The position numbers and the translations under genes were made by a program. The notes under the pieces were generated by a model that worked only from the letters and a program-made list of their open reading frames with translations, ran no database searches and was not told the DNA's origin. 60,375 bases of DNA, from IMG/VR virus record IMGVR_UViG_3300018036_002016, positions 1 to 60,375 of that record; one strand, 5' to 3'. This document shows, piece by piece, positions 2,313 to 53,208 of this stretch (position 1 is its first letter; every line of letters starts with the position of its first letter). This DNA is from a virus. Lineage: Duplodnaviria > Caudoviricetes.

Positions 2313-2924
2313 CTAGCTCAAGCCACCAGCAACTAGAGACTTTCCGCGACGAATTCGATTCTTAACTGTTTGAAGAGGTACATTATATTTTTCTGCGATA
2401 TCTTCGTACTTCATTTTTCCAATTAGTCGATCTTCAAGAATATCGCGGTACATTGGTTTGAGATTATTCATGAGTTGAAGAGCCATGTTATATCGATTCA
2501 TCAAGTCATTTTCTTCTTCCCAAAAATCTGATTCTGATTTTTGATCGGCTTCTTCAATCAGCATAGAAAGAGTCTCGTTTAAAGACTTATTTTGGCTAAC
2601 TTCAATTCCCAAATCTTTCATGCCATCTAGACTATATTTTTTATTACGCTCTCGAATATATCCAAGGCTTTCGTTAAAAGCAATACGGTACAGCCATGTA
2701 GTAATTTGATATTCTGGTTTGTACTGATCAATTTTAGTCCATAGTTTAAGAAGAGTATTAGCCAATACATCTTCTACTGCTTCTTCATCTTTAAGAATAT
2801 TCCAAATGTAACTTTTAAGTCCTGGTCGAACTCTTTGATAAAGTGCATTGTAAGATTTTTCAGAACGGGTGTTGAAGAATTCTTGACCCAATTGACGGTA
2901 GGATTTTTGATTGTTTTTGCTCAT
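2313..2924 (-). CDS. ECF-type sigma-70 factor
   Basis: Region 2 (EDVLANTLLKLW...TWLYRIAFN) and region 4 HTH (MKYEDIAEKYNVPLQTVKNRIRRGK). Confidence 0.9.
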   Translation of the reverse strand: MSKNNQKSYRQLGQEFFNTRSEKSYNALYQRVRPGLKSYIWNILKDEEAVEDVLANTLLKLWTKIDQYKPEYQITTWLYRIAFNESLGYIRERNKKYSLDGMKDLGIEVSQNKSLNETLSMLIEEADQKSESDFWEEENDLMNRYNMALQLMNNLKPMYRDILEDRLIGKMKYEDIAEKYNVPLQTVKNRIRRGKSLVAGGLS

Positions 2925-2950
2925 AAGATTATTTGTTTAAAAGAACTATA

Positions 2951-2958
2951 CAAATATA
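2951..2958 (-). promoter_or_regulatory. Class 1 promoter box TATATTTG upstream of the ECF sigma gene
   Basis: Exact match to TAnnTTTG, 26 nt upstream of the start codon. Confidence 0.65.
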
Positions 2959-3008
2959 ACCATTTTTTTTCAAATAAAAAAATCTGGCTTAAAAAATTTT
3001 AAAAAAAA

Positions 3009-3524
3009 TTACAAGTCTTGAAATATTCCAAGAATATGCTCTAAATCTTGGGGCTTGTAATTCCACAAATCAGCACTGACGTTAATGGTCATTTCTTTAG
3101 GATCTGATTTATATGCCCTATCCGGGTGGCCAACAAGAGACCAATATCCATCTCTTTTATTTGGCCATTCTTTAAGAGGCCAATATGAGATTGTTGTTTT
3201 CATTTTATGAAGAGGCATTATATGGGGCTTAATCGCAGCTCCATTAATTAACATTTGCTTGGTTGCAAGCTCAATAATTGGACTATCATGTTCTCCTGGA
3301 ATAAACCAAATAGTTCCATTAAGCTTGTCTATCGCAGTTGCTGCTGTTTTAGGATCCCATGCAAAATTACCTAAATGATAAACTAAGTCGTCAGGTCCAA
3401 CTACCTCATTCCATGTTTTAATTATATGACTATCCATTTGATCTACACTATCGAAAGGTCGATCATAATTATCTATTGCATTTGGTCTACCTAATTGTAG
3501 GTTAGAAATAACAAATCGTTTCAT
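3009..3524 (-). CDS. Calcineurin-like phosphoesterase fold with degenerate metal ligands
   Basis: ISNLQLG, WNEVV..DDLVYHLGNF and PGEHD in place of SDxHxG, LGD and GNHD. Confidence 0.7.
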   Translation of the reverse strand: MKRFVISNLQLGRPNAIDNYDRPFDSVDQMDSHIIKTWNEVVGPDDLVYHLGNFAWDPKTAATAIDKLNGTIWFIPGEHDSPIIELATKQMLINGAAIKPHIMPLHKMKTTISYWPLKEWPNKRDGYWSLVGHPDRAYKSDPKEMTINVSADLWNYKPQDLEHILGIFQDL

Positions 3525-3551
3525 GAGGTCTAATGATTTTAAATAAAAATA

Positions 3552-3581
3552 TCTACGAGCAGAAATTAATCCGCTCGTAGA
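3552..3581 (-). terminator. Intrinsic terminator-like hairpin
   Basis: TCTACGAGC...GCTCGTAGA followed by a T-rich run on the minus strand. Confidence 0.6.
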
Positions 3582-3599
3582 ATAGTAGTCTAAAGGATA

Positions 3600-4139
3600 T
3601 TATCCTTCCGTAGTTTCGGTTTCTTCTAGAACCGGTTCTACAACTTCAGTGTTATTAGCTTTTTCTAGCTCATCGATTCGAGAATCTAGTTCTGAAAGCT
3701 CAACATGAAGATCTTTAATTTCTTGATTCATTTCACCAAGAACCTTCATTGCGTTTGTAACTGTTTCTCCGACAAGGGTTAACATTCTAATGAACCTGCG
3801 TGCATTCTCAACTCCAGTTCCTTCAACTGAAAGGAGAGCTTGATAAAGTCCATTTAGTTCATGTGCTCGCAAAGAAACTACTGCCGTTTCTGTTTCTTTA
3901 GAATCAGAAGTTGCCAATTCTTTATACTGTTTTTTAAGGTTATCGTATAAAGTTACGATAACTGCAGCATTTTGAGTCTTCCACGTAAATCCTTTGTCTA
4001 GGTGATCCATCACCAATTTTACGGTTTTACGGTCTTCAAAGTCAACTTCAAAGAGGTGTTCGGCATGATGGACTTGAACCTCATCAACCTTTTTTTCTAG
4101 TTCAGCTCGTTGCTGTGTAAGTGTTTCGATGTTACTCAT
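3600..4139 (-). CDS. Hypothetical coiled-coil protein
   Basis: Intact ORF with a heptad pattern. Confidence 0.6.
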   Translation of the reverse strand: MSNIETLTQQRAELEKKVDEVQVHHAEHLFEVDFEDRKTVKLVMDHLDKGFTWKTQNAAVIVTLYDNLKKQYKELATSDSKETETAVVSLRAHELNGLYQALLSVEGTGVENARRFIRMLTLVGETVTNAMKVLGEMNQEIKDLHVELSELDSRIDELEKANNTEVVEPVLEETETTEG

Positions 4140-8632: not shown

Positions 8633-8655
8633 ATTGAATACACGTCTGGGATTAG

Positions 8656-8729
8656 TACGCCGTACAGGATTCGAACCTGTGACCGTCTGCTTAGAAGGCA
8701 GATGCTCTATCCAGCTGAGCTAACGGCGC
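8656..8729 (-). tRNA. tRNA-Arg(TCT)
   Basis: GCGCCGT acceptor, TAGCTCAGCTGGATAGAGC D arm, anticodon arm TCTGC-CTTCTAA-GCAGA, T arm GGTTCGAATCC. Confidence 0.95.
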
Positions 8730-8739: not shown

Positions 8740-8767
8740 CTTATACAGCCTGCTCTTGCTTTGTTTC
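8740..8767 (-). promoter_or_regulatory. Class 2 promoter GAAAC-N17-TATAA upstream of tRNA-Arg
   Basis: One of eight near-identical copies with fixed spacing. Confidence 0.7.
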
Positions 8768-8983
8768 ATTAATCTTATTAAACTCGTATTTACCTTTAAT
8801 AAATTGATTCAAAGCTTTGCCTTGTGAATCTGCCATATTAAAAAGATTCCAGTCTGTTAGCTCAACACCTTCATAAACATATGTTGCGTGGCTAAAATGA
8901 ACTGTTAGCGTCTTATGTTCAACGTTGTAAGTTGCTGACTTGACCGTAGAAGAATTATAGTTTGAATGAGTGGTTGTAATCAT
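8741..8983 (-). CDS. KTSC-domain protein
   Basis: SSTVKSATY, LTVHF..TYVYEGV and ADSQGKALNQFIKGKY. Confidence 0.8.
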   Translation of the reverse strand: MITTTHSNYNSSTVKSATYNVEHKTLTVHFSHATYVYEGVELTDWNLFNMADSQGKALNQFIKGKYEFNKINETKQEQAV

Positions 8984-9000: not shown

Positions 9001-9028
9001 CTTATATCACTAAAGTTACCTTAGTTTC
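9001..9028 (-). promoter_or_regulatory. Class 2 promoter GAAAC-N17-TATAAG
   Basis: Same motif, upstream of the KTSC gene. Confidence 0.7.
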
Positions 9029-9696: not shown

Positions 9697-12524
9697 TATC
9701 CAAATAATCCACCGGATTTTTGATTTTTAATAATTCTTTGTAGATCTTCAATTGCCGATACGATTTCGTCGCTGTCAAAATTACCTACTGGAGATTGTCC
9801 GCTTGATGAACTTCCACCAACACCAACTAAATTCTTTAGTTTACCTGCAACTCCTTCAAGAGCGCCTGCTGTTTTTTGACCTGATTCTGTTTGAGCATCT
9901 ACGCTTCCTCCAAAATTCTTTATCATCTCAGATAGCTCACCGACTGCCTTAACTAAAGATTCTCCAAGTTTTGCCATTGCATTATCACCTCCAACTTCAT
10001 TAAGATATGCTAGCGCTTTTACCATTTCGGTAGTTTTATCTAAAATTTCAACGTTCATTCCAGATTGAGCAATTTTAATAGCATCATATCCTTTAGCAAC
10101 ATCATGAAGGAATTTAGGATACGCTGTAAAATATTCACTTACAGAAAAACCATTTTTTAATTGCATTCCCATATCTGTAAGAATTACAGAATCTACAATC
10201 TTATTAATCTTTTCAATATTTCCTAATGTTGCATATCCTATAACTCTACCTAATGATCCCGCAAGTAAATCCATTCCTTCGGAAAGTGTAATTATTCGAG
10301 GTCCCATTCTTACAAGATCTTCTAGAATATCCATCGGCCCTTTTGATTTTTCAGCTCCAAAGAATCCTGCAACTCCATCAAAAAATGCTTTACCAACATT
10401 TGCAACTGAAGATAATAATCCTCCCGCTGCTACTCCTGCTGTTGCTCCAGCAAGAGCCATAAGTGAAACTGAGATTGCAATAATTCCTACTGCCAAAGGT
10501 ATTAGGGTTTCAACCCCTAATTCGTTTTTTATTCTAACAAGAACATCAACAATCCCATTCATAGGTGCTAGAATTGCTTCGGTTAATCCCTTAGCAACAG
10601 ATGCTAGCTTACCTGCAGGAATATATGAGAAAATCCATGCAATTGCTAATATACCAGCTGCTATTATAATCATTCCAATTACACCAAGAGCGACGGCTGC
10701 TAAACCAGTTCCACCAGTTGCCATAATTATTGCTCCTATTATTCCTACTGGAATTGCAAATAGGATAATTGAAACCATTGCGCTTAATGACCAACCTATA
10801 TCAGGTGCTAAGTAGGTGCTTGGTAATATACTAAATATCCATGCAGTTGCGAGAATCGCGATTGCAACTGCAGCTACACCAATAACTCCAAATAAAATAT
10901 CTTTTATTGGAAGCTTTCCAACAGTATATGCTAGTGCTACAAATGCCGCTCCAAATACAACAAGAGCCAATCCTGTTTTAAGAGTCCATTCCCATGGCGG
11001 TGCGTTAAATGCAGATGGTAAATAGGTAAATACCCATGCTGCTGCAACTAATCCAATAGCAATTAGAGCTACTCCGGCGGTTGTAAACAATAAATTTTTA
11101 ATGTTAGTTCCTCTTAGTGATTTTGAAAGAATACCGAAAGCAAATGCCGCTGGGATCATTATGACTGCGATTGCAAGAGCTGTTAATAGTTGGACTGGTT
11201 GAACTGGCATAATTAACTGCATTATCATAGAACTTAATGTTAATGCAGCAGCAATACCTACCATTGATAATAATGTTACACCCATTGCTTGCCATATATT
11301 ACCTGGTCCGATTCCAGTTTTACCTCCTTTTAGATTTTTAAGAGCTTTAGATATTTTTACATATGCATATGCTGCAGGTATAAAAATTACAGATATTGCA
11401 AGTGCCGTTAATAATTGTATAGGATGTACTGGCATAATTAACTGCATTACCCATGAACTTATAGCAACCGCGGCTGTAAATCCAACAAGTGCTAATATTC
11501 CAGTACCCACTGTTTGCATTATTGAAGAAATTCCACCTCCTATGTTAATTGGATTTTTACTTTTAATCCTATTAATAGCAACCGCAACTTTTGCATATGC
11601 GTATGATAATCCAATAAATGCAAGAGATATACCTATTGCTGTCATTAATTGAGCTCCTGAAACTGGTAATATTAGTCTAAACAACCAAGATGAAGCTGTA
11701 ATTGCCGCTGACATTCCGATCATTGACATTAATACTCCACCTGCAAGTTGGAATATTCCACTTCCGTCTGTTTTCTGGAAAGGCATTCCCTGAATACCTG
11801 CTTTTGTAACTCCCTTCATTTTTAACAGAACTTTACTAATCTTACCAAATGCCATTGCCATTGGAACAAATGCAATCGCAATAGCAATTGCAGTCACTAA
11901 CTGAGCACCTGAAACTGGTAATATTAGTTTCATTAACCATGAAGTGGCAACTATTGCAGCGGACACGCCAAGCATCGAAATTAATGTACCTGCTGCAAGT
12001 TGGAATATTCCACTTCCGTCTGTTTTTTGAAGAGGTATACCTTCAATATTTGCCTTTGTCGTTCCTTTCATTCCTTGCAGAATACTTGCTATTTTAACAA
12101 AAGCGATGGCCATTGGAATAAATGCAACAGATATTGCAATTGCTGTCACAATCTGCATAGGACTTAGTGCAGGTATTAAAGAAAACATAAATGCAGTTGC
12201 AACAATCGCAGCACCTATACTTAACATTGCAAGCGCGGCTATACCGATTGTTCCTTTATCTAACTTTTTAAGACCATCAAAAGATCCCATTTTTTGATCA
12301 CCGTCTTTAGAGTCTTTAGATTTCTTTTCTCCATTCTTAAGAATTGCTCTAATGTCTTTAAGAATAACAGTCTGCTGCGAAAGTTCACTAACTTGTACTT
12401 CTGCATTTTTAAGATTTTGAACATTTAGTTCATACATAAGTTCTACCTTTTCTTCCACCTTTTCAGCTACCTTAGATAGCTTATTCATTGGAGATAGTAG
12501 TGTTAATAATTCTTTTCCGCCCAC
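9696..12524 (-). CDS. Tape-measure-like protein with repeated hydrophobic segments
   Basis: Lies after tube and chaperone genes; Ala/Ile-rich internal repeats (KTDGSGIFQLA twice). Confidence 0.6.
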   Translation of the reverse strand: MGGKELLTLLSPMNKLSKVAEKVEEKVELMYELNVQNLKNAEVQVSELSQQTVILKDIRAILKNGEKKSKDSKDGDQKMGSFDGLKKLDKGTIGIAALAMLSIGAAIVATAFMFSLIPALSPMQIVTAIAISVAFIPMAIAFVKIASILQGMKGTTKANIEGIPLQKTDGSGIFQLAAGTLISMLGVSAAIVATSWLMKLILPVSGAQLVTAIAIAIAFVPMAMAFGKISKVLLKMKGVTKAGIQGMPFQKTDGSGIFQLAGGVLMSMIGMSAAITASSWLFRLILPVSGAQLMTAIGISLAFIGLSYAYAKVAVAINRIKSKNPINIGGGISSIMQTVGTGILALVGFTAAVAISSWVMQLIMPVHPIQLLTALAISVIFIPAAYAYVKISKALKNLKGGKTGIGPGNIWQAMGVTLLSMVGIAAALTLSSMIMQLIMPVQPVQLLTALAIAVIMIPAAFAFGILSKSLRGTNIKNLLFTTAGVALIAIGLVAAAWVFTYLPSAFNAPPWEWTLKTGLALVVFGAAFVALAYTVGKLPIKDILFGVIGVAAVAIAILATAWIFSILPSTYLAPDIGWSLSAMVSIILFAIPVGIIGAIIMATGGTGLAAVALGVIGMIIIAAGILAIAWIFSYIPAGKLASVAKGLTEAILAPMNGIVDVLVRIKNELGVETLIPLAVGIIAISVSLMALAGATAGVAAGGLLSSVANVGKAFFDGVAGFFGAEKSKGPMDILEDLVRMGPRIITLSEGMDLLAGSLGRVIGYATLGNIEKINKIVDSVILTDMGMQLKNGFSVSEYFTAYPKFLHDVAKGYDAIKIAQSGMNVEILDKTTEMVKALAYLNEVGGDNAMAKLGESLVKAVGELSEMIKNFGGSVDAQTESGQKTAGALEGVAGKLKNLVGVGGSSSSGQSPVGNFDSDEIVSAIEDLQRIIKNQKSGGLFG

Positions 12525-12559
12525 TGGTAAAATTTATATTTGCAGATATACTCTAGTAT

Positions 12560-12567
12560 TATATATC
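12560..12567 (-). promoter_or_regulatory. Class 3 (putative late) promoter GATATATA
   Basis: RATATATA recurs shortly upstream of genes at 12560, 14674, 17601, 22714, 27970, 30312, 32287, 34311, 37087, 39298, 50388 and 58044. Confidence 0.6.
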
Positions 12568-12571
12568 AAGA

Positions 12572-14654: not shown

Positions 14655-14687
14655 ATTCTTTGTTTCTTTATTTTATATATCCTTTGA

Positions 14688-17570: not shown

Positions 17571-17622
17571 AGTTTTTCTTTTTTATTTTTTTTTCTATAG
17601 TATATATCTTAAAAATCTGATT

Positions 17623-34284: not shown

Positions 34285-34322
34285 GGTAGGTTATTATTAT
34301 ATTCTCTTGTTATATATTCTTA

Positions 34323-35769: not shown

Positions 35770-35790
35770 GACTAAAATAGTATTTATTAG

Positions 35791-35818
35791 ATTATATGAA
35801 AAAAGGGCCAATTGTTTC
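35791..35818 (-). promoter_or_regulatory. Class 2 promoter GAAAC-N17-TATAAT upstream of gp55
   Basis: Motif copy 21 nt before the GTG. Confidence 0.75.
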
Positions 35819-35831
35819 CAATTAGCCCTTT
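35802..35831 (-). terminator. Intrinsic terminator overlapping the class 2 promoter
   Basis: AAAGGGCTAATTG-GAAA-CAATTGGCCCTTT followed by TTT. Confidence 0.75.
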
Positions 35832-35857
35832 AATAGATTTATAAACTTCTAGATATA

Positions 35858-37066: not shown

Positions 37067-37100
37067 CTTTTTATTTTGATTTTCTTTATATATCATTTAT

Positions 37101-37907: not shown

Positions 37908-37910
37908 TTA

Positions 37911-39275: not shown

Positions 39276-39305
39276 TAGATATTATTTTTTTCTATTTTAT
39301 ATATC

Positions 39306-42082: not shown

Positions 42083-42083
42083 A

Positions 42084-42521
42084 TTAAAATAATTTATTTA
42101 TGTTCTTTCTTCCAAGGATCCCTGTTTTCAAATCTAATTCTTGTATTAAATCTTCTTTGTAAACATTAGAAAGAGAATTGTAAAACTTTGTTGGGTTAAT
42201 GTCAAAGTAAATGCATAGTTCACTAAACAAATCTATTCTAGAGTATCTCTTAACCATTTCGTCTACTATGTATCCGTAAACATCATTGATTTCTAGCTTT
42301 TTTAGTTTTGCATTTCTGCCGTGTTCATCAATTTCATTAAAAACTTTAAATCTAGAAACCATAATTAATTCATGAATTTCATTTGCTATAAGCTCGTAAT
42401 GAATTTTATCTTCTTCTGGTCTATTATCCTTCCACGAAGGATCCAGATCAAAGGAAAAGTTAGAAAGAATCTCAAAATCTGGAGATTCAAAGTTGTTATC
42501 AAATATTTTATCTCTTTCCAT
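42084..42521 (-). CDS. Possible late transcription coactivator (gp33-like C-terminal half)
   Basis: IDLFSELCIYFDINPTKFYNSLSNVYKEDLIQEL resembles the gp33 helical pattern; hydrophobic LF tail. Confidence 0.4.
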   Translation of the reverse strand: MERDKIFDNNFESPDFEILSNFSFDLDPSWKDNRPEEDKIHYELIANEIHELIMVSRFKVFNEIDEHGRNAKLKKLEINDVYGYIVDEMVKRYSRIDLFSELCIYFDINPTKFYNSLSNVYKEDLIQELDLKTGILGRKNINKLF

Positions 42522-43837: not shown

Positions 43838-43853
43838 ATGACTATTATTTAAG

Positions 43854-43881
43854 CTTATAGAAGAAATTAGTCTTCAGTTTC
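43854..43881 (-). promoter_or_regulatory. Class 2 promoter GAAAC-N17-TATAAG upstream of the helicase
   Basis: Motif copy. Confidence 0.7.
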
Positions 43882-44988
43882 CTCTATTAACTCATCAAAA
43901 TCAAATTCAACCTCAGTGTTATAGTTAAATAGTGGATGAATCTTACTCTCGATCTTTTCTAGAACCTCTTGCGTAAATACTTTTTCAGTAAAGAATTCAT
44001 TATTTGGTACCGTTTCATCAAGGTGCTTACAAATCCAATTGCGAGCCGTCTTTTTAGGTATCTTTTCTCCTTTTTCAATTACACCCTTTGCAATACCAAT
44101 CTCTTCCCAATCGATATATTGTTCTAATCCAACAAAACGATTCATCCCTTCACTGAAATGCAAGTGAAATTTGATTGGATGTGGTTTAGCAAATCTATTT
44201 TTATTTGGCTTTGCGGTAACTATAATACCAGCCTTTTCTCCACTAGAATCTTTAAGCTGTGCTTTTCCTAAGAATAGCACAATAGAAGCTGCATATTCTG
44301 GTCCTGTTCCACCACCTGCAACCTGACGAGAGATAAAGTCTTGTGTCTGGTATGTGTGGTTTGTGAATAGGAATGGGATCTTAAGGTCTGCCATTGGTGT
44401 CATAATGATGCGGAAGATTGACTTTAAAATCTTCGAACGCGTCATATCTGATTTCTCTGAACCACTAACCGCATCATCTATTTCTTTTTGAGTTGCGAGG
44501 TTACCTGCAGAATCAAGAATAATCATCATCTTGGGTAGTTCAGCACCAGCACGCTTAGCCTCTTGCATTCTCTTCGTAATTGTAGTTACTGAAGACCTAA
44601 ACTCTTGTACTGTATTGATCGGTTGGTAGTTTACTTTGTCTGTATCAATACCGAACTTTTTCATAAGAGTTTTATCAACTGCTGCTTCTGAATCATAGAA
44701 GATGATGCTGTAACCCATATCAATTGCTCTACGAATAGAGTTTAGAATCAAGTAGGTTTTACCAGTACCAGAAGGTCCTGCAATCGAACATGACCTGTTG
44801 TTTGGCCATCCACCAAACAAACTACCTGAAACACATGCATTGAGATGATAATTGCCAGTGTCAATCCACTCGGTCACATCACTAAAGCTTGAATTTGACA
44901 TTACCGATCCAAGTGGATTTAGGGTTGCCAATTCTGCGTTAATGTCTTCGAAACTAAATTTATTATTTTTCTTTGCCATAACTTTCAA
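43867..44988 (-). CDS. uvsX: RecA-like recombinase UvsX
   Basis: DTGNY.LN, GPSGTGKT, YDSE, LDSAGNL, TNHTY and GGGTG. Confidence 0.93.
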   Translation of the reverse strand: MKVMAKKNNKFSFEDINAELATLNPLGSVMSNSSFSDVTEWIDTGNYHLNACVSGSLFGGWPNNRSCSIAGPSGTGKTYLILNSIRRAIDMGYSIIFYDSEAAVDKTLMKKFGIDTDKVNYQPINTVQEFRSSVTTITKRMQEAKRAGAELPKMMIILDSAGNLATQKEIDDAVSGSEKSDMTRSKILKSIFRIIMTPMADLKIPFLFTNHTYQTQDFISRQVAGGGTGPEYAASIVLFLGKAQLKDSSGEKAGIIVTAKPNKNRFAKPHPIKFHLHFSEGMNRFVGLEQYIDWEEIGIAKGVIEKGEKIPKKTARNWICKHLDETVPNNEFFTEKVFTQEVLEKIESKIHPLFNYNTEVEFDFDELIEETED

Positions 44989-45157
44989 ATATTTTTTTGT
45001 CTTTTTGTCGAACTATGTTTAATTGTTCTATTAATTTGGATGCTTCAGCGCTTAATGTTTTTATTTGATCTTCAAGCACTGAAATTCTATTGTAAATTGT
45101 TTGGTATTCTTTAACAATTTCTTTTTGGTCATCCGTTAGATTTTGTAAATCAATCAT
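44963..45157 (-). CDS. Small coiled-coil hypothetical protein
   Basis: Translationally coupled ORF. Confidence 0.55.
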   Translation of the reverse strand: MIDLQNLTDDQKEIVKEYQTIYNRISVLEDQIKTLSAEASKLIEQLNIVRQKDKKIFESYGKEK

Positions 45158-45312
45158 TATTCTGGAAATTGAATTTTTAATTGATTTGGATCTGACTGTG
45201 AATCTAAAGATTCTTTAATTTCCCAGTAAAATTGTCTTACTTTTCTACCTAGATCTAGATTATTTGGATATTGCTCCACTAGGTCCATGATTTGTTTAGT
45301 TGTATTTTCCAT
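45157..45312 (-). CDS. 51-aa ORF (MENTTKQIMDLVEQYPNNLDLGRKVRQFYW...)
   Basis: Read by hand; fills the gap, and its stop overlaps the next start. Confidence 0.55.
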   Translation of the reverse strand: MENTTKQIMDLVEQYPNNLDLGRKVRQFYWEIKESLDSQSDPNQLKIQFPE

Positions 45313-45314
45313 GA

Positions 45315-46517
45315 TTAAAATAGCGCAGACGCATAAATTAGATTAGTGTCTAGTGTTTGTAGACCAATTGCTTTTAAGACTCGATTAAGAGGATCGATCA
45401 TTGACTTTTCAAATTGAGTGTCGTAATCAACAGTTGGTGCAAATTCATATGGATGTTCACCTGGCATATACGCAAAAGTATCACTTAATGAATCTTTTAC
45501 ATGGTATATTTTTAGCTTTTCTCCATTACCAATTAACTTATACTTATTTTTATATTTAGTATTATTATTTAGTAGATAGTTATAGTATCCGGCTGCCTTT
45601 ACATTAGGTGGACACTTTAGCCCGAACTGAAGTTCTATTTGGTCATCTACGATATATTTTTCAATATTATTTGTCCTTTTATTAAAAGAAATATCGTCAA
45701 GATCTGCAAGCTTAAACTCTTTTTTAGATTGCTTCATGAACGTAACAAGCTCTTGTAAATCTTCGGCAGTTGGCTGTTGATGCTTTTTAAATAAAATTTT
45801 AAGAGCATCTACTAGTTTTTCACGTGCAAATTTAGGTGTAGAAGATTGAATTGTATCGAAGCCAATGGTTTTTACTTTTTTCAAAGATGGATGTCGATCT
45901 GTTATTTCTAATTTATCGTCCCATGCAATATTTTGAATGTATTTTTTCTTACTCATCCAAATACCGTTGTATGCTATTGTTTCTAATTCAAAAACCAAGA
46001 AATTATCAGTATTTCTTTTTTCAGCGTACTTTTCCATAGCTTTAACAATATAGCTTTTAAGTCTATAATTATAAAGCTCTATGATAAACGTGTCTATTGA
46101 TTTTTCTTCACCTAGCCATTCTACCGCATTATACATTTCTTCAAATTGAACATAGCAAGAGTCAGTATCAATGTATATTACTGAAGGTTTTTCTAGCCTA
46201 TGCTTAACTCTAATATTAAACTTTTCATGGACTGCTGAATCTATATGAAAGAATTCTTGAAAATACTTGTTTATAATACTTTCTGAGTATAGGATAGCAT
46301 CTTGTCCTTGTAAAGTAATTGATTCTGCAATGTCAATATTGAAAAAGTGAAACCACTTATTACCAAATGCACCATAGATAGAGTTCAAAGTTACTTTAAC
46401 TGCCTGCTCATAAGCTGTATATTTAGCAGAGAGCTCCTCATAGTATTGTATAAGGAGCCCTGCTTCATCTTTGCTTAACTGATCGGTTGGTTTATTCTTT
46501 AACTCTTCTATATTCAT
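45315..46517 (-). CDS. Family-B DNA polymerase, C-terminal subunit (gp43B-like)
   Basis: Motif B KVTLNSIYG, ITLQGQ, motif C YIDTDS, KKKY and SSTP. Confidence 0.92.
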   Translation of the reverse strand: MNIEELKNKPTDQLSKDEAGLLIQYYEELSAKYTAYEQAVKVTLNSIYGAFGNKWFHFFNIDIAESITLQGQDAILYSESIINKYFQEFFHIDSAVHEKFNIRVKHRLEKPSVIYIDTDSCYVQFEEMYNAVEWLGEEKSIDTFIIELYNYRLKSYIVKAMEKYAEKRNTDNFLVFELETIAYNGIWMSKKKYIQNIAWDDKLEITDRHPSLKKVKTIGFDTIQSSTPKFAREKLVDALKILFKKHQQPTAEDLQELVTFMKQSKKEFKLADLDDISFNKRTNNIEKYIVDDQIELQFGLKCPPNVKAAGYYNYLLNNNTKYKNKYKLIGNGEKLKIYHVKDSLSDTFAYMPGEHPYEFAPTVDYDTQFEKSMIDPLNRVLKAIGLQTLDTNLIYASALF

Positions 46518-46518
46518 A

Positions 46519-47262
46519 TTAAGCCGTTTGGCAAGTTGATACGGTCAAGAGAGTTTCACTATCTTTTGATGCAAAAACTACTTTAGATTGTGAAATGTAT
46601 ACAGTCTGTTCTTCTTTATCAAGAAGATTTAGATATTTTTTATAAACTGTAACTTCGCCATCACCATTACTTTCAGGATTAATTACTACATTAAATGATT
46701 TACCCTTTACATTAACTCCAGTCCCATTAGCCTTAATTGCAAAGGTTTCATCTTTATCTAATGTAAATAGATTTTTAACTTTTCCAATTGAGTATGTGTC
46801 TAATTCAAAATTGAATTCGCTACCTTCTCTTGAGAAAATGCCTTCAATTTGGTCAAGAGATAGATCTTTAAATCCAAGAGAAGGTTCAGAACATGATAGC
46901 GTAATTTCTAGCTCATCATTAAAAAGTTTAATAGTAGATGCTACTAGGTCTTCATCATTTTCAATGAATTCAATTTCACCTTTAATCGCGTCACTATCAA
47001 AATGTTTAATAGCATCAATAACTTTTGCTCCGTCAAAAAATGCTAGCTTCATTTCTTTATCAGTTTCTGGAGTTGATGCTAATTTAAAGATAGCATCAGT
47101 GTTGACTGCGTGATACTTTACCGCATCTCTTTGTGGAAGATACACTGCTGATGTGATTCGATTGGCATCCATTTTCATATAAATGAATGAATCAATGAGT
47201 CTTACTCGATTAATAAAGTTCGTTAACGCATGTTGGTCAACTCGATCAATTACTAGTTTCAT
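46519..47262 (-). CDS. Sliding clamp (gp45-like)
   Basis: Size, alternating alpha/beta two-domain pattern and replication context; weak sequence signature. Confidence 0.6.
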   Translation of the reverse strand: MKLVIDRVDQHALTNFINRVRLIDSFIYMKMDANRITSAVYLPQRDAVKYHAVNTDAIFKLASTPETDKEMKLAFFDGAKVIDAIKHFDSDAIKGEIEFIENDEDLVASTIKLFNDELEITLSCSEPSLGFKDLSLDQIEGIFSREGSEFNFELDTYSIGKVKNLFTLDKDETFAIKANGTGVNVKGKSFNVVINPESNGDGEVTVYKKYLNLLDKEEQTVYISQSKVVFASKDSETLLTVSTCQTA

Positions 47263-47291
47263 ATTTTTTTATTTGTTTAAAGAATTTAAAG

Positions 47292-47319
47292 ATTATATGT
47301 GTATAGTTCAAACTGTTTC
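47292..47319 (-). promoter_or_regulatory. Class 2 promoter GAAAC-N17-TATAAT upstream of clamp, PolB-C and UvsX
   Basis: Motif copy. Confidence 0.75.
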
Positions 47320-47324
47320 ATAAA

Positions 47325-47403
47325 AGTGAGGCCAGGAAGTAGCGAACCCCTGGCCTCTTCCGTGAACTACCACGGCCCTAAGACGAGGTCTTCAAACCTC
47401 ACC
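47325..47403 (-). ncRNA. Candidate structured RNA of three hairpins; the last may also terminate nrdA
   Basis: GC-rich island; the stems extend through G-U pairs only on the minus strand. Confidence 0.55.
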
Positions 47404-47418
47404 ATTTTTACTATTACA

Positions 47419-49287
47419 TTAACCGTCACAGCTTAAGCAGTCGGGATCAGTTGCTCTAGTTGCAATATCTCCTCGCAGAACGCTTTCCGTTCTCATGTAA
47501 TAGAGTGTTTTTATACCTTGATCGTATGCTTCAAGGTGAACCTGATTAATAAATTTAGGATCTGCTGTATTTGGAAATGCTAAGTTTAATGAAACTGACT
47601 GGTCAACATATTGCTGTCTAACTCCAGCCTGTCGTACTAGTTCCATTTGATTAATTTCCTTAAATGTTCTAAACACATCTTTTATTGGAATAAAATTAGA
47701 TCTTGCAGCCTCTGGTGCCTTTTCAAGATCTTTTTTGTGAATTGGTTTTCCCCATCCTTCTTTATTAGTGTTTAATTCACCATGATGTACATAATAGTCA
47801 TCCATCCAATCAATCCCTTGAACACTTCCTCCATCTTCTAGTATCTTATCCCAAGTATCCTTCGTGTTTTTACCGATTGATTCTAGTGCTAATTCTAATG
47901 TACTATTTTTGCGAATAAATGTTCCTTTTGCTGTTTGTTCTGTGAATACATTTGCTGCCCATGGTTCAATACCTGGAGAAACGTTTCCGCTCAATTTGCT
48001 ATTAGAAACAGTAGGTGCTACTGCTCTAAGGTGTGTATTGCGCATTCCTGTACCAACGCACCACAAAGGCTCTCCATATTCTTTTGCCATATCTCGGCTA
48101 GCCTTTTCACTTTCAGTCTTTAATTCACTAAAAATTTTGCGAGTTTCAAATTGAGCAGATAATCCCTCAAATGGAATATTTCTATCTTGTAAATAAGTGT
48201 GCCATCCTAGAACTCCAAGTCCTAATGCTCTTCCTTTTTCTGCTGAACGAATAGAGTTCTCAAACCCTCGCATGTATTTTGCCTTTTGAATAAACTCTTC
48301 GAGAACACCATCCAAGAACCAAGTTGCTGTGTAAATAAGATCAGTATCTTTCCACTCATCATATTTTGCTAGGTTTAATGAGCTTAAACAACACACAAAC
48401 GAATGATTCTCATCAGTGTGTAATGCAATTTCAGAACAAATATTGGTCATGTAAACCTTTAATCCATTGTTCTTATATGCATCTGGATTTGCGTTATTTA
48501 CATTACCTTTAAACATAATATATGGTTCTCCAGTAGCTCTACGTTTTCTTAGTAGAGCTGCCCATCTTTTACGAGCCTCTTTATCTCCTTCTTTAATCTT
48601 TTGCATAAATGCATCTGGAACAATAACGCATTGGTGTAGATTTAAAGATTGCCTATTTACATCTCCTTTTGGCTCTCTAATCTCCAACCATTCCCAGAAA
48701 TCTTTATGTTCAATGTCAATATTTACCGAAGCAGCGCCTCTACGAACTGAACCTTGGTTAGTAGCTAGAATTGTTGAATCGTAAATCTTGCAGAATGGAA
48801 CTACACCATCACTTGTACCGTTACCTCGAATAGTAGCACCTGCAGGTCTGATTTGATTGATTCCAATTCCAACACCACCTCCATGTTTTGCTAAAAGCAT
48901 CATTTCTAGGTTTTTTGCACCAATGTCGTGAATTGAATCAGCAACGTCTAGTCCAAAACAAGAAATTGGTAGACCTCTTTCAGTTCCAGTGTTAGATAGA
49001 ACCGGCGATGCTAAGTTTAACCAACCTTTCCAGATATAATCAAAAAACTTACTAGCCATTTCTGGTTTTTGTAATCTCTTTGCTACAGTGGTTGCAACTC
49101 TCCAATATGCATCTTTTGGGGTTTCTCCTTCTAGAAGGTATCCATTACTAATAGTTTTTACATATATTTCTGTATTTGCCCATGTTGGAAAATCTACACC
49201 AAGTTCCCATCCAAGGGTTTCACCATAATTGATCGCACATGCGTCTTTATCCATTTTATCTTCTTTGTTTTTAAAAAAATTAATCAT
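47419..49287 (-). CDS. nrdA: Ribonucleotide reductase class I alpha subunit (no ATP cone)
   Basis: ASPVLSN, PISCF, TNICSEI, CCLSS, APT, KTLYY and C-terminal CLSC. Confidence 0.95.
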   Translation of the reverse strand: MINFFKNKEDKMDKDACAINYGETLGWELGVDFPTWANTEIYVKTISNGYLLEGETPKDAYWRVATTVAKRLQKPEMASKFFDYIWKGWLNLASPVLSNTGTERGLPISCFGLDVADSIHDIGAKNLEMMLLAKHGGGVGIGINQIRPAGATIRGNGTSDGVVPFCKIYDSTILATNQGSVRRGAASVNIDIEHKDFWEWLEIREPKGDVNRQSLNLHQCVIVPDAFMQKIKEGDKEARKRWAALLRKRRATGEPYIMFKGNVNNANPDAYKNNGLKVYMTNICSEIALHTDENHSFVCCLSSLNLAKYDEWKDTDLIYTATWFLDGVLEEFIQKAKYMRGFENSIRSAEKGRALGLGVLGWHTYLQDRNIPFEGLSAQFETRKIFSELKTESEKASRDMAKEYGEPLWCVGTGMRNTHLRAVAPTVSNSKLSGNVSPGIEPWAANVFTEQTAKGTFIRKNSTLELALESIGKNTKDTWDKILEDGGSVQGIDWMDDYYVHHGELNTNKEGWGKPIHKKDLEKAPEAARSNFIPIKDVFRTFKEINQMELVRQAGVRQQYVDQSVSLNLAFPNTADPKFINQVHLEAYDQGIKTLYYMRTESVLRGDIATRATDPDCLSCDG

Positions 49288-49295
49288 ATACTTAT

Positions 49296-50300
49296 TTAAA
49301 AGATGTCATCTTCATCCCAGTTTTCATCCTCGCCTGCTTTTGAATAGTCAGTAGGTCTAATTGCAAAAAAGTCAGTGTGTGTTGTTCCTCCTGTTAAATG
49401 ATAGAACCAATCTAATTCAGATGCCTTTGATTCATCAAATTCCATAAATGGACCTTCAACATATCCTAATTCTGCAATTTTTTCATTTGCTCTTTTTACA
49501 ATAAAATGCTTTAGATCTTCTGCTTTTAGGTTTTCAAGATCTCCCATTTCAAACATTTTATCAATAAACTTATGCTCCATTTCTACCATTAACTCTGCTG
49601 CTCTAATAACATCGTCTTTTACTTCTTGTTTTAGTTCAGGATATTCTTCGCACATATGACGGAATAATTGACATCCCATTCTACTGTGAAGTGATTCGTC
49701 ACGAACAGACCATTTCATTTGCTGACCAATCCCCTTAAGAAGGTTACGCATCTGGAATGAATATAAAACTGCAAATGATGAATATAGTGAAACTCCTTCG
49801 GCAAAAGCAGAGAAGATTGCCAGTGATCTGGCTACCTGCTTTCTAGCTTCTGAACTTGATGCTAAATCTTCATGAGACCAATCAGCTTCAACTGAAGTTA
49901 AGTGTTCAAATTTATCAGCAGTTGCTGGTTCGTGTAGAAATGCTGTAAAGTCTTCTAGTCCTAGTGTTTCATTTAAGTATGAATATGCTGTTGCGTGAAT
50001 AGTTTCTTGTGAACCAAACATCATTGCCATTTGCTTAATTTCATGCTTTGGAAACCAGTTGGTAACCATACCAGTCCAGTAATCTGAAACTGCACATTCT
50101 GTTTGAGCAAATCCTAATAGTATATTTCCTACTAGATTTTTTTCATGTGATTCCATTTTTTCATTCCAATCTTTTACATCGCCTTGCATTGAAATTTCAG
50201 TGTGAAGCCAAAATGCTTGGGCTTGTTTTAACCAACCTTCAGTGTAGTAGATTGGATATTCAAATGGTTTAAATTCTATTCTTTCTTTAAATATTGACAT
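49296..50300 (-). CDS. nrdB: Ribonucleotide reductase class I beta subunit
   Basis: AFWL..E, ETIH...Y, EGVSLYSSF, RDESLH and DFF. Confidence 0.95.
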   Translation of the reverse strand: MSIFKERIEFKPFEYPIYYTEGWLKQAQAFWLHTEISMQGDVKDWNEKMESHEKNLVGNILLGFAQTECAVSDYWTGMVTNWFPKHEIKQMAMMFGSQETIHATAYSYLNETLGLEDFTAFLHEPATADKFEHLTSVEADWSHEDLASSSEARKQVARSLAIFSAFAEGVSLYSSFAVLYSFQMRNLLKGIGQQMKWSVRDESLHSRMGCQLFRHMCEEYPELKQEVKDDVIRAAELMVEMEHKFIDKMFEMGDLENLKAEDLKHFIVKRANEKIAELGYVEGPFMEFDESKASELDWFYHLTGGTTHTDFFAIRPTDYSKAGEDENWDEDDIF

Positions 50301-50334
50301 ATTCTTATATTACCTTATTTTTTAGACTAAAAAA

Positions 50335-50361
50335 GGTCTAAATACAAAATATTTTTAGACC
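50335..50361 (-). terminator. Terminator-like hairpin upstream of nrdB
   Basis: GGTCTAAA...TTTAGACC followed by TTTTTT. Confidence 0.55.
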
Positions 50362-50423
50362 CTATGCTTGTTGATTTCTATGTTTTTTATATATTCAGAA
50401 ACCTTCAAGCGAAGTGCACAGTA

Positions 50424-51824
50424 TTACCTAAATTTTTTTTTAAGTTCATGTGCTTTTTCATAAAATTCATATGACGTTGCTTTGTATTCTTTACGTTGAG
50501 AATAAAGATCGCTAAGAATCTTTTTTAGAATTGAGTCTTCCTTTTTATATACTACTCCATTTTCACAAACAATCTCCTCAGTATTTTTGCGACGTTCTTT
50601 GATTTCATTTGTTGGAATAATATCAACATATGCATCTGGTGAAATATTAAATTGTCTCATTACCGAAGGATATAGTGACGCAAAGTCAAATGCACTTACA
50701 CCGGAATAGTAACCAACAATAGGCTGCTTTACAAAAGCACCTGCATATTTACCATCTTTTTTATTATCTTCTTGACTATAATCTACTCCAATTTTTCGAT
50801 TTAGTTCTGCCATTTTTCGAGCCATTAGAGCTTCGGTTACAGCAACTGGTGAAGCTGCTTTATACAAAGGCATTTTTGTGATTGTTGCAAGGGTCATAAT
50901 AACTTCCATTGATTTTAACTTTTGATCGATATAATAAACCAAAATTGAATCGACTACGTTATAATAAACATATTTTTGAAAATCATTCTGATAAAGATCT
51001 TGCAATCCTCCAGTATATTTAATTTTTGCAACATCGAGAACTTGGCCAGAAACAAAATCAAGTTTATTTGATTCTTTGACTTTAACAGATCTGTCATATT
51101 TATCGTAAAGTTGCATATAATCAAGAATACCCATATGTAAAGGCCTACTATCATTTTTATCAAGAGCACCGGTGACCGCTATTTCAGTTAGGTCAAGTTG
51201 TAACCTTTTACATCGATTTACAATATATTGCCAGTCATAGTTAATAAAGTTCCAGCCCGTCATCATAGGAAACTTAGGCAAAAACTTATGCAAGAATGTA
51301 TATAGCATATTATATTCATCCTTGAATTTATAATAAGAGAACTCCCAGTCTTGATCGTACTTCTCGAAGTGTTTATTAGTGTTCTCTTCAATCTTTTTAA
51401 TTTGCTCGCTAGATAAATCATCTAAGCCAAGAACTATTGCCTTGCGATCAGGTGTGATTATTGAAAAGGTAAGAATTCTACTCTTTGCCTCTTCTGCTTT
51501 TGGAAAGCCATCAACAATCTCAGTCTCAATATCAACAAAATATGTTTTTGGCATATTAAATGCAAATATTTCTTCTTGATCGCTTTCAGGAAGAGAATCC
51601 ATAAAATAGACAAGCGAGAACTTATTAAAAGATCTCGCCCTTTGTCTTTTAATTGGGCGACCGTCCCAATTTACAAAATTCTGGTCGCGCCATTTATCTG
51701 TTTCTTCTGTTACTACCCAATTTTCAAATTGACTTACCGGGTATCTTTTAAATGCTACTTTTCCTTCTTTATTATAATACGATACAATTATTTCTTGGTC
51801 CTTTTGCTCGATGTCTAATAGCAT
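50424..51824 (-). CDS. Family-B DNA polymerase, N-terminal subunit (exonuclease plus motif A; gp43A-like)
   Basis: DIET, GWN...YD, LDY, YNVVD, GAFVK and DFASLYPS; ends in the fingers helix (QRKEYK). Confidence 0.92.
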   Translation of the reverse strand: MLLDIEQKDQEIIVSYYNKEGKVAFKRYPVSQFENWVVTEETDKWRDQNFVNWDGRPIKRQRARSFNKFSLVYFMDSLPESDQEEIFAFNMPKTYFVDIETEIVDGFPKAEEAKSRILTFSIITPDRKAIVLGLDDLSSEQIKKIEENTNKHFEKYDQDWEFSYYKFKDEYNMLYTFLHKFLPKFPMMTGWNFINYDWQYIVNRCKRLQLDLTEIAVTGALDKNDSRPLHMGILDYMQLYDKYDRSVKVKESNKLDFVSGQVLDVAKIKYTGGLQDLYQNDFQKYVYYNVVDSILVYYIDQKLKSMEVIMTLATITKMPLYKAASPVAVTEALMARKMAELNRKIGVDYSQEDNKKDGKYAGAFVKQPIVGYYSGVSAFDFASLYPSVMRQFNISPDAYVDIIPTNEIKERRKNTEEIVCENGVVYKKEDSILKKILSDLYSQRKEYKATSYEFYEKAHELKKKFR

Positions 51825-51852
51825 TTGATTTTTTTTCTAAGTTAATGTTTAA

Positions 51853-51880
51853 GTTATATTAATAGATGTAAGACTGTTTC
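51853..51880 (-). promoter_or_regulatory. Class 2 promoter GAAAC-N17-TATAAC upstream of PolB-N
   Basis: Motif copy. Confidence 0.75.
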
Positions 51881-51899
51881 TAAACCGATTGTAAAATAT

Positions 51900-52475
51900 T
51901 TATCCCCATCTTCCTAATTCATTAAATACTCTAAATTTAGAAACATATCTTCCCTGTTTTGTTCCTAACATTAAGTTGACCCATCTTCCAGCGATTTTTT
52001 TAGTCCAACTGTATCTAAAGTGCTTGTGTCCTCTGATATAAAATGTTGCAAATTGCAGACCTGTAACTGTTTTATCTCTCCATATCATGCCACCTTCTTC
52101 ACCTATGACATTATGTACTCTAATCTCAATAATGTCTCCATTTGTTTTTTTTGCCAAAGCTAACTTTAGCTGCCATGCTGGATTTCGCATAGCTACCCAT
52201 TCAAATGACTGGGAAAAACGCTCCCACTTCGTCATTCTATTGTATTCATATAGAATGTCTGCAACTTCAGGTCTTAATTCATAAAAACCATACCAGTTTT
52301 CAAGGTGGCTTGGCTCATCTTGATTTGTTAAATACCAGAGACCTAACACCTTAAATAGCCTTGGATTATTATCAATTTGGCGTCTTAATAAGTATACCAA
52401 AGGAAAGAGAAGAATACCTAAAAGTGCTCCAATTGCTTCTAAAAACTTTACAATAAAAAATCTAAGATACATCAT
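51900..52475 (-). CDS. Hypothetical protein with an N-terminal TM segment
   Basis: Hydrophobic N-terminus; W..MRNPA motif. Confidence 0.6.
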   Translation of the reverse strand: MMYLRFFIVKFLEAIGALLGILLFPLVYLLRRQIDNNPRLFKVLGLWYLTNQDEPSHLENWYGFYELRPEVADILYEYNRMTKWERFSQSFEWVAMRNPAWQLKLALAKKTNGDIIEIRVHNVIGEEGGMIWRDKTVTGLQFATFYIRGHKHFRYSWTKKIAGRWVNLMLGTKQGRYVSKFRVFNELGRWG

Positions 52476-52845
52476 TTTTACTAAGATATAAAATTATTAT
52501 ATGTGCTGCTTTATAATTAGTTGCTAATGGGACATTATGTACGTCACAAAGTCTCATCAACATTGAAATGTCAACATCATGCGGGTGTTTGTCGAGAGGA
52601 TCTCTAAAAAACACAACTGCATCCATTTCACCACGAGCAACCATTGCTCCTATTTCTGCATCACCACCAAGAGGACCACTATTTACCCGCTCTACTTTTT
52701 CCACGCCAGCATGCAAGATGCTTGCTCCCGTAGTTCCAGTTGCTACAAGTTTTACGTCTTCCCGGTTGAAGAAGTCTAGTCTCTTCATTACAAAAGCAAC
52801 CATATCTGCCTTTTTTCCATCATGGGCTACTAGTGCTATTTTCAT
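52462..52845 (-). CDS. mgsA: Methylglyoxal synthase
   Basis: IALVAHDGKK, ATGTTG, SGPLGGD, FFRDP..HPHDVD and PLATN. Confidence 0.93.
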   Translation of the reverse strand: MKIALVAHDGKKADMVAFVMKRLDFFNREDVKLVATGTTGASILHAGVEKVERVNSGPLGGDAEIGAMVARGEMDAVVFFRDPLDKHPHDVDISMLMRLCDVHNVPLATNYKAAHIIILYLSKNDVS

Positions 52846-53150
52846 TCATTTACTATTTTACGTAGTTCATATTCACTATTTCTAGTTTTAAACCTAATTA
52901 AGTCATCAGTGGCCTCAATTAATTCAGTAATTGTAGTAGTTTGCCATGTGAAAAATTGGTTAAATGGAGACATGATCAGAGACCTCTCTATTTCAGGAGT
53001 ATTATGTTTATCTTTAAAGGTACCGTCCTCATTCCATTCAATCCAAAGGATTTTACTTGAACGCTTAGTTAATCCATCATGCGAGCGAACAAGTTCCCAA
53101 TTCATCTCTTCGTGTTCTAGCAATATTTTTGGTTGTACTCCTGTTATCAT
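52842..53150 (-). CDS. Hypothetical phage protein
   Basis: Intact ORF with WQTT..TE...FKTRNSEY. Confidence 0.65.
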   Translation of the reverse strand: MITGVQPKILLEHEEMNWELVRSHDGLTKRSSKILWIEWNEDGTFKDKHNTPEIERSLIMSPFNQFFTWQTTTITELIEATDDLIRFKTRNSEYELRKIVNE

Positions 53151-53180
53151 ATCAATGTTCTATAGCTATAGAATTCTATA

Positions 53181-53208
53181 GTTATAGAAGAAGGTTCACA
53201 CTTGTTTC
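53181..53208 (-). promoter_or_regulatory. Class 2 promoter GAAAC-N17-TATAAC, in tandem with a class 1 box at 53214
   Basis: Motif copy. Confidence 0.7.

Follow-up and report, generated by a model that had tools for sequence, protein, structure and literature searches.

Which factor reads a promoter-like pair of boxes that recurs before the replication genes of an uncultured T4-like phage, and where does this reading fall in the order in which the phage expresses its genes? The question is raised by a stretch of 60,375 nt from the uncultured Caudoviricetes record IMGVR_UViG_3300018036_002016 (hereafter the window, i.e., the whole of the DNA analysed), in which the motif GAAAC-N17-TATAA is repeated upstream of genes and in which a gene at 2313-2924 encodes a σ factor of the extracytoplasmic function (ECF) type. 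A preliminary description of this DNA had proposed a three-tier cascade, running from the host σ to the phage ECF σ and from it to a homolog of the T4 late σ factor gp55. We consider it likely that such a three-step relay operates: every link of it that the sequence allows to be tested came out as predicted, and from these links we infer which factor serves which promoter class and that the ECF step is the "middle" one.

The exact motif occurs seven times in the window, always on the minus strand, which is the coding one, against 0.37 occurrences expected, and none of 100 shuffled sequences reached seven; this corresponds to a density of about 116 per Mb. Its spacing is similarly restricted, since a scan of spacers from N13 to N21 on both strands returned seven matches at N17 on the minus strand and zero or one everywhere else. 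The seven coding-strand sites of the preliminary description are confirmed, although their coordinates were off by one base, and its N18 copy, placed at 26263, is present at 26264-26291, a single occurrence that alone is not above chance (36 of 100 shuffles contained at least one). The weak copy noticed near 210-237 exists too, at 211-237, but its second box matches at only three of five positions (TATTT) and it lacks statistical support. No further copies with one mismatch were present in the non-coding stretches of the window. When all 5-mer pairs in the intergenic DNA were counted, GAAAC/TATAA appeared among the top ranks, beside the pairs that belong to the host-type (class 1) boxes discussed below, and no third phage-specific motif class was seen in that count.

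Two start codons in the mechanically made list of open reading frames (ORFs) fell inside promoters and were corrected, to a GTG at 35763 for the gp55-like gene and an ATG at 26243 for the clamp loader gene. After this correction all eight copies (seven N17 and one N18) end 17-31 nt before a start codon or, in the case of tRNA-Arg, 11 nt before the gene. The genes said to follow the sites are indeed those of tRNA-Arg, the KTSC protein, gp55, the helicase, the C-terminal part of PolB with UvsX, the N-terminal part of PolB, the MGS run and the clamp loader; the label "clamp", however, is one of position only, as the gene at 46519-47262 gave no Pfam or PHROG match. The sites, referred to as class 2 promoters, are the following (G001, G002 and G018 being related records):

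8741-8767, minus strand: class 2 promoter, 11 nt before tRNA-Arg (8655-8729), overlapping the last codons of the KTSC gene
9002-9028, minus strand: class 2 promoter, ending 18 nt upstream of 8741-8983, the gene with the KTSC domain
26264-26291, minus strand: class 2 promoter whose spacer is N18, ending 20 nt ahead of the clamp loader start codon (ATG, 26243); N17 in the G002 ortholog
35792-35818, minus strand: class 2 promoter before the gp55-like gene, its -35 box in the loop of a terminator hairpin
43855-43881, minus strand: class 2 promoter, ending 17 nt upstream of the helicase gene (DnaB-like, gp41-type; 42521-43837), kept in G001, G002 and G018
47293-47319, minus strand: class 2 promoter, 30 nt before the clamp-position gene (46519-47262), which is followed by the PolB C-part and UvsX; kept in G001, G002 and G018
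51854-51880, minus strand: class 2 promoter, ending 29 nt upstream of the gene for the PolB N-part (50424-51824), kept in G001 and G002
53182-53208, minus strand: class 2 promoter, 31 nt before the gene at 52842-53150, which is followed by MGS-domain and DUF7338 genes; it abuts the class 1 box TTATATTAG (53214-53222), i.e., tandem early and middle promoters before one operon, as is also seen in G001 and G002
211-237, minus strand: weak class-2-like copy GAAAC-N17-TATTT, about 20 nt before tRNA-Ser (107-190)

The co-occurrence of motif and ECF gene in related phages, on which the cascade proposal had counted, is found in 18 of 18 records whose σ is 55-100% identical to that of the window, each having 5-22 copies on one strand where the reversed control gives 0-2. 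Four records with a σ about 80% identical hold 12, 11, 6 and 5 copies, on one strand only (reversed pattern, 0-1), and in each of the 13 long records with a σ 55-76% identical the main strand holds 8-22, the opposite strand or the control 0-2. One of the more distant members, G018 (σ 57% identical), has 21 copies on the coding strand, situated, for example, before the genes for an ssDNA-binding protein, the helicase, an SbcC-type nuclease, the clamp loader and the homolog of 46519-47262. In the records G000, G001 and G002, 29 of 30 copies are non-coding although the DNA is 91-95% coding. A logo of these 30 sites contains information only in (T/G)GAAAC(A/T) and (A)TATAA, and the sixth base 3' of TATAA is a purine in 28 of them, as would be expected close to a start site. 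At the orthologous positions before the polymerase N-part, the clamp-position gene, the helicase, gp55, the clamp loader and tRNA-Arg, boxes and spacing are kept while the spacers have diverged. Strand, position, spacing and conservation together therefore identify the sites as real, selected upstream elements with -35/-10 geometry.

The candidate reader of these elements is the following gene:

2313-2924, minus strand: gene of an ECF-type (group 4) σ factor of 203 aa

Its product is a two-domain ECF-type σ, as had been proposed, and Pfam, TIGR02937, solved structures, an AlphaFold2 (AF2) model and Foldseek agree on it. Pfam finds Sigma70_r2 (residues 28-94, 6.7e-12) and Sigma70_r4_2 (148-195, 4.4e-9) alone, with no region 1.1 or region 3, and the sigma70-ECF model TIGR02937 scores 71 bits against a cut-off of 42.9, whereas the protein stays below the cut-off of every specific subfamily (best, Sig70_bacteroi1, 79.6 against 126.4). 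Among proteins of solved structure, its sequence matches are ECF σ factors only, namely SigW (the best, 5.3e-11), AlgU and σE. In the AF2 model (mean pLDDT 76.5) a disordered, low-confidence linker (105-129) connects two helical domains, 9-104 and 131-202, and the top 15 Foldseek hits of this model are all ECF σ factors. The gene lies beside those of a glycosyltransferase and a phosphoesterase, and no anti-σ factor gene was found among its neighbours. In five of five records of the clade, up to 87% complete, there are exactly two σ-like genes, the ECF-type one and gp55; two phage-specific motif classes, beside the host-type one, match these two genes.

Does this σ read the motif? In the crystal structure that shows SigW's σ4 domain on its -35 element, T168, K170, T171, R172 and R175 are described as contacting G-35, A-34 and G'-31 (the partner of C-31) within the consensus G-A-A-A-C-C-T (PMC6713349). 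In a HMMER alignment the phage helix QTVKNRIRRGK lies against GTVKTRIHRGR of SigW, and the equivalents of these contacts are T186, K188, N189, R190 and R193, four of the five being identical. None of the five varies among 15 members of the family, whose overall identity goes down to 61%, and the -35 box of the phage consists of the same five bases as the GAAAC of SigW (the motifs of SigW and of Flavobacterium psychrophilum were compared from text descriptions). In the uncultured phage LR756500, whose σ is 32% identical, the residues T, K, N, R and R are kept and the motif counts are 17+6 against 1+2 for the control. Five σ homologs from genomes without the motif have instead replaced the equivalents of R172 and/or R175:

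Lak-A1: helix STVKNYLYKGK, no motif enrichment
LR745206: helix STIKSQIRNGR, no motif enrichment
LR756502: helix STVKSQIRNGR, no motif enrichment
cr50_1: helix GTVKSDLNKAK, no motif enrichment
G003: helix SSAKKAVNKAK, no motif enrichment

Motif enrichment was likewise absent from LR756504. Taken together, the σ encoded at 2313-2924 is most likely the factor that reads GAAAC-N17-TATAA, a pairing suggested by helix, box and their joint occurrence. As a side observation, the σ homolog of LR756500 (LR756500.1, 145464-146186) carries an insertion of about 40 residues inside the helix-turn-helix (HTH) of region 4, with the recognition helix kept, and that genome has five σ region-2 matches in total.

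The relay also makes statements about how the σ genes themselves are expressed. The ECF σ gene was said to follow a class 1 box, and it does:

2951-2959, minus strand: class 1 (host-type) box TTATATTTG upstream of the σ gene, fitting the Bacteroidota box TAnnTTTG

Among 80 relatives, which yield 63 distinct sequences upstream of the σ gene, TAnnTT[TA]G is present in 41 of the 63 and close variants such as TATATTTA in the rest, about 25-45 nt before the start; AAAC-N16-18-TATAA occurs in none of the 63. Lying behind a host-type box and never behind class 2, the σ gene would therefore be early and not autoregulated. Over the whole window eight class 1 boxes were found against 4.4 expected, a count that is not above the shuffles; the notable features of these boxes are strand and position.

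The next link, from the ECF step to gp55, concerns this gene:

35395-35763, minus strand: gp55-like late σ gene, with a GTG start 28 nt after TATAA; it matches phrog_234, "late sigma transcription factor" (3.6e-12), and weakly Sigma70_r2

Its position behind a class 2 promoter recurs in 41 of 44 distinct relatives (34 exact copies, one with N18, and six of the form xAAAC-N17/18-TATAA). The three upstream regions that lack the motif have a small ORF inserted before gp55, and in G002 the motif precedes that ORF. The gp55-like gene of LR756500 has no motif within 120 nt upstream. At this site the promoter overlaps a terminator hairpin, GGGCTAATTG-GAAA-CAATTGGCCC with a T-run (35790-35840), with the -35 box in the loop; the overlap exists in most relatives, and the stem covaries through compensatory changes. 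G018 has the hairpin and GAAAC apart from each other and still keeps the motif, with N18; GAAAC is therefore not just a loop sequence.

The last link is that structural genes follow class 3 boxes of the type ATATATAA, i.e., (G/A)ATATATA(A/C) or RATATATAM, and such boxes do precede the tube, sheath, capsid, protease and portal genes:

14673-14681, minus strand: class 3 box GATATATAA, of the late, gp55 type, preceding the tail tube gene
12559-12567, minus strand: class 3 box
17600-17608, minus strand: class 3 box (sheath)
22713-22721, minus strand: class 3 box
30311-30319, minus strand: class 3 box (major capsid)
32286-32294, minus strand: class 3 box (prohead protease)
34310-34318, minus strand: class 3 box (portal)
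37086-37094, minus strand: class 3 box
39297-39305, minus strand: class 3 box
50387-50395, minus strand: class 3 box
58043-58051, minus strand: class 3 box

Their number (11 against 7.2 expected) is not above the shuffles; strand and position are the notable features, with 11 of 11 on the coding strand and eight of the 11 at 11-34 nt before a start codon, among them those of the portal, the prohead protease, the sheath and the tail tube. The T4-type late system also relies on the co-activator gp33 and the clamp gp45; a clamp loader gene exists in the window, and the clamp candidate at 46519-47262 has no family match. The box at 50387-50395 (AATATATAA) has surroundings of its own: within 50300-50400 a hairpin with a T-run comes after it, ahead of the gene of the ribonucleotide reductase small subunit, and this may represent a short transcript or an attenuator.

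In the relay that we propose, host polymerase with the primary σ would start at the class 1 promoters (T-run ... TTATATT[A/T]G), and the 203-aa ECF-type σ would be among the early products. This σ, on the host core polymerase, would then read class 2, (T/G)GAAAC(A/T)-N17-(A)TATAA, region 4 recognizing GAAAC at -35 in the fashion of SigW and region 2 recognizing TATAA at -10, and transcription would start some 6-7 nt further. Class 2 would thereby drive the helicase, the split polymerase, the clamp loader, UvsX, the clamp-position gene, the tRNAs and the gp55-like gene, as well as, in a relative, the ssDNA-binding protein and SbcC. Finally, gp55 would direct the polymerase to the -10-only ATATATAA boxes before the structural genes.

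Could the class 2 promoters be read by another factor? A host alternative σ, for instance an ECF of the Bacteroidota, might do so, leaving the phage σ to other targets or to host genes. AAC-type -35 elements are common to many ECF σ factors, and phage PAU, whose relatives infect Bacteroidota, has the motif in promoter-like positions without an ortholog of the σ. We nevertheless hold this to be improbable: in 40 genomes from the family of a metagenome-assembled genome (MAG) titled Flavobacteriaceae the motif shows no excess, with 755 occurrences (about 5 per Mb) to the 1055 of the reversed control, although a small regulon would escape such a count; the one ECF-type motif described for F. psychrophilum has CGT, not TATAA, at -10 (PMC9723704); and the flavobacterium-infecting relative PTm1, in which no σ match was found, shows no motif enrichment. 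Furthermore, the helix of the phage σ fits GAAAC, and no third phage-specific motif class was seen for that σ to read. A slightly smaller chance still is given to an arrangement like that of T4, whose middle promoters work by σ appropriation: the host primary σ would occupy TATAA, and a phage activator bound at GAAAC would replace the -35 contact. TATAA does resemble the classical σ70 -10 hexamer, and several genes of the early region have no assigned function. Class 2 sites, however, have TATAA without the TTTG half of the Bacteroidota primary σ box TAnnTTTG (-12 to -5) and are thus a poor fit to the host box; the 17-nt gap is the classical spacing for direct contact by σ4 and σ2, and the helix of the encoded σ already fits GAAAC. 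In addition, no AsiA (PF09010) was detected in any of five records and no MotA (PF09114) above the cut-off, in a search of records at most 87% complete that had no T4 positive control.

The remaining alternatives concern the nature of the sites. Since TATAA is part of ATATATAA, class 2 might be a late-promoter subclass that gp55 reads, GAAAC serving as enhancer or as the site of some other factor, and the bases before the -10 box, which resemble the late box, lend this some colour (T two bases before TATAA in 14 of 30 sites, A one base before in 23 of 30). It is very unlikely, because with the gp55 gene itself under class 2 in nearly all relatives nothing would be left to start gp55; moreover, the regulon comprises replication genes and tRNAs rather than structural genes, and the late boxes have no GAAAC at -35. 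That the sites are not promoters, but terminator loops or sites for replication or packaging, is scarcely credible: the GAAAC in the hairpin loop at gp55 invites the idea, yet the overlap is confined to the gp55 site, G018 separates the two elements while keeping the N18 motif, and all sites stand on the coding strand at a fixed 17-31 nt from the start codon that follows.

A number of points do weigh against giving the class 2 promoters to this particular σ. The -10 elements of ECF σ factors usually contain CGT or GTC, so that TATAA is unusual, and it could not be derived from region 2 of the σ. The lineages that bear the motif, i.e., the clade and LR756500, are each other's nearest relatives (portal 57% identical), and because of this the co-variation of helix and motif may reflect a single evolutionary event. 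All records are incomplete, 87% at most, and a further regulator may have been missed for that reason. The RNA data consist of short metatranscriptome contigs, which show neither starts, strand nor timing, and such libraries can contain DNA. The heaviest material comes from PAU (NC_019521.1), with 23 copies of GAAAC-N17-TATAA, all on the plus strand and with a longer consensus, GAAACTTTCGAGGGTTTCGTAGTATAA; eight of eight copies checked sit 17-80 nt before annotated gene starts, and no homolog of the 2313-2924 σ was found in this phage. The motif can therefore exist without this σ. Examples are:

11493-11519 of NC_019521.1, plus strand: PAU motif copy
25484-25510 of NC_019521.1, plus strand: PAU motif copy
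35783-35809 of NC_019521.1, plus strand: PAU motif copy

The only full σ-like protein of PAU is gp1 (94-1182), of 362 aa, annotated as a σ factor and internal capsid vertex (virion) protein. As a relative of the window σ it was rejected: BLASTP gives an E of 0.095 and hhalign a probability of 1.5%, so that no usable homology exists beyond the HTH, and its recognition helix is different. Either PAU uses another σ on a similar promoter, or a factor other than the ECF σ reads the motif in both lineages. A tentative and rather doubtful extension of the former is that the promoter class is older than its σ and common to the PAU lineage, LR756500 and this abundant aquatic clade, its reader having been swapped by non-orthologous displacement, with the ECF σ filling here the slot of MotA/AsiA in T4. 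The reader in PAU would then be the virion-associated 362-aa σ, and that in the clade a SigW-like ECF σ without an anti-σ factor.

How does the proposed relay, with an ECF-type σ between host σ and gp55, compare with known systems? ECF σ factors typically recognize an AAC-containing -35 element at a fixed distance from the -10, are encoded together with an anti-σ factor and act on an autoregulated promoter, the last two traits not being obligatory. Here, an AAC-type -35 at fixed spacing is present (the reader being the one proposed), and neither an anti-σ factor nor autoregulation was found. SigW itself is a cellular stress σ of B. subtilis held by the anti-σ factor RsiW, with a -10 of the CGTA type. 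It is the best solved homolog (5WUQ), sharing the two-domain fold, the helix (TVKTRIHRGR against TVKNRIRRGK in the phage) and the -35 GAAAC(C), but identity is about 20% over the aligned model, and the phage σ has no anti-σ factor nearby, no autoregulation (0/63) and TATAA as its -10. With T4 the phage shares a gp55-like late σ, -10-only A/T-rich late boxes, core genes and a middle class serving replication genes and tRNAs; it differs in that MotA/AsiA were not found in the records searched, the middle class is a true -35/-10 pair with N17, and the late box is ATATATAA instead of TATAAATA, the T4 late consensus. PAU resembles it in a portal 32% identical, the same motif before genes and an encoded protein of the σ family, and differs in the longer motif consensus and in gp1, which is larger, annotated as a virion protein and not detectably related beyond the HTH.

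Phage-encoded σ factors are already known, as the examples of T4 gp55, the SPO1 cascade and the ECF-family σ of phiEco32 and 7-11 illustrate, and gp23-type jumbo phages are also stated to encode them (PMC7824862). In phiEco32 (gp36) and 7-11, the ECF-family σ is reported to bind host polymerase and to serve conserved, low-copy phage promoters, and no annotated anti-σ factor is mentioned in these accounts (PMC7881722; PMC4331800). The likeness therefore lies in a lytic phage with an ECF-type σ, promoters of its own and no annotated anti-σ factor; the difference, in that those are small enterobacterial podoviruses without a gp55 late system. No Kuravirus is among the 47 phage records that match the σ at E<=1e-5, all of them Lak, crAss-like or uncultured phages, and gp36 is therefore, as judged from this search, not a close homolog. 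SPO1 is described as using the host σ early and then successive phage σ factors for middle and late genes (gp28, then gp33/34) (PMC13401047). The order of a host σ followed by successive phage σ factors is common to both, whereas the late step of the window phage belongs to a T4-type gp55 homolog and not to gp33/34, and lineage and host phylum differ. No published description of this motif, of the clade or of an ECF-to-gp55 relay was found in a search that left subscription journals and supplements outside.

As to the phage itself, the window has a G+C content of 33.5%, and nearly all genes lie on its minus strand. They include, for structure and packaging, portal, prohead protease, major capsid, tail sheath and tube, large terminase, head-closure and DNA-end-protector genes, and, for replication and recombination, the DnaB-like helicase, UvsX, the split family-B DNA polymerase, the clamp loader, an SbcC/D-type nuclease and ribonucleotide reductase, a T4-type core set to which the gp55-like σ also belongs. 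CheckV estimates the completeness of the record at 21%, and that of relatives of 234-236 kb at 77-87%, which makes this a jumbo phage; the window is about one fifth of it. The name "T4-like" holds at a distance: among named relatives, PAU, PTm1, Lak and huge uncultured phages come closest. By portal identity the nearest record of the phage collection is LR756500 (uncultured, 462 kb; 57%), followed at 31-38% by other huge uncultured phages, Sphingomonas phage PAU (32%), Lak phages and Tenacibaculum phage PTm1, and no cultured close relative was found in that collection. The clade is abundant: related portals occur on at least 550 stretches of IMG/VR, and over 1000 proteins give a match to the σ at E<=1e-10. 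With a portal profile that included PAU, PTm1 and LR756500, the best 80 matches were all at least 77% identical, and in the protein search for relatives the matches listed were all at least 71% identical.

Some further features of the genomes were noted. In the 236-kb contig G015 an identical 27-mer is found at 2071-2097 and 236045-236071, which may be a terminal redundancy; the genome would then be complete at about 234 kb. On its plus strand the window has a single sizeable ORF (26309-26818, 169 aa), flanked by the promoter of the clamp loader and by the minus-strand gene that comes next, and its product has no match in Pfam or NCBIfam. The two parts of PolB (C-part, 45315-46517; N-part, 50424-51824) are separated by about 4 kb that hold ribonucleotide reductase genes and the clamp-position gene, and both part genes have a class 2 promoter of their own upstream.

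The host probably belongs to the Bacteroidota (Flavobacteriia-like), as several clues suggest. Named hosts of relatives are Tenacibaculum, Prevotella and Chryseobacterium, and the best NCBIfam model for the σ is a Bacteroidetes ECF subfamily, with a score under its cut-off. None of 63 window genes has a GGAG/GAGG core at -22 to -5, and the leaders are A-rich, which indicates that Shine-Dalgarno sequences are not used; the Bacteroidota are described as lacking the Shine-Dalgarno core (PMC6847099). TTATATT(A/T)G, with which the most frequent intergenic motif ends, fits the -7 box of Flavobacterium σA, given as TAnnTTTG and located at -12 to -5 (PMC9723704). A genome scan returned one σ 58% identical, on a contig of the MAG titled Flavobacteriaceae (G019) that is probably binned phage DNA, and otherwise only matches at most 27% identical over the full length. 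Four contigs of the same MAG (C10, C12, C33 and C35) are short and carry clusters of the phage motif, including a copy like that of the gp55 promoter; they are probably phage DNA binned with the bacterium, and offer a weak hint at the host. Finally, a search of sequencing runs found five salt-marsh metatranscriptomes, in the form of assembled contigs. Four of them, from four studies, were compared with the window, and their contigs of 150-430 nt, many of them identical to it, fall in 35000-54000, so that this phage, or a nearly identical one, is present in those libraries.

Little is understood of how, without MotA/AsiA, T4-like phages beyond the T-even group schedule the expression of their replication genes, and the Bacteroidota, with their unusual promoters, have few genetic parts. 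For an abundant clade, the present analysis suggests a concrete, testable answer: one small σ factor, one promoter type of 27 nt, the residues expected to read it and, in PAU, a cultured relative that shares the motif. If the class 2 promoter had indeed changed its reader between PAU and the clade, the latter would provide a compact, orthogonal σ-promoter pair for Bacteroidota. If the relay from host σ through the ECF-type σ to gp55 is true, phage middle transcription would gain another documented design, its third after σ appropriation and the SPO1 cascade, joined here to a T4 late system, and the relay would offer an orthogonal expression switch for Flavobacteria-type bacteria.

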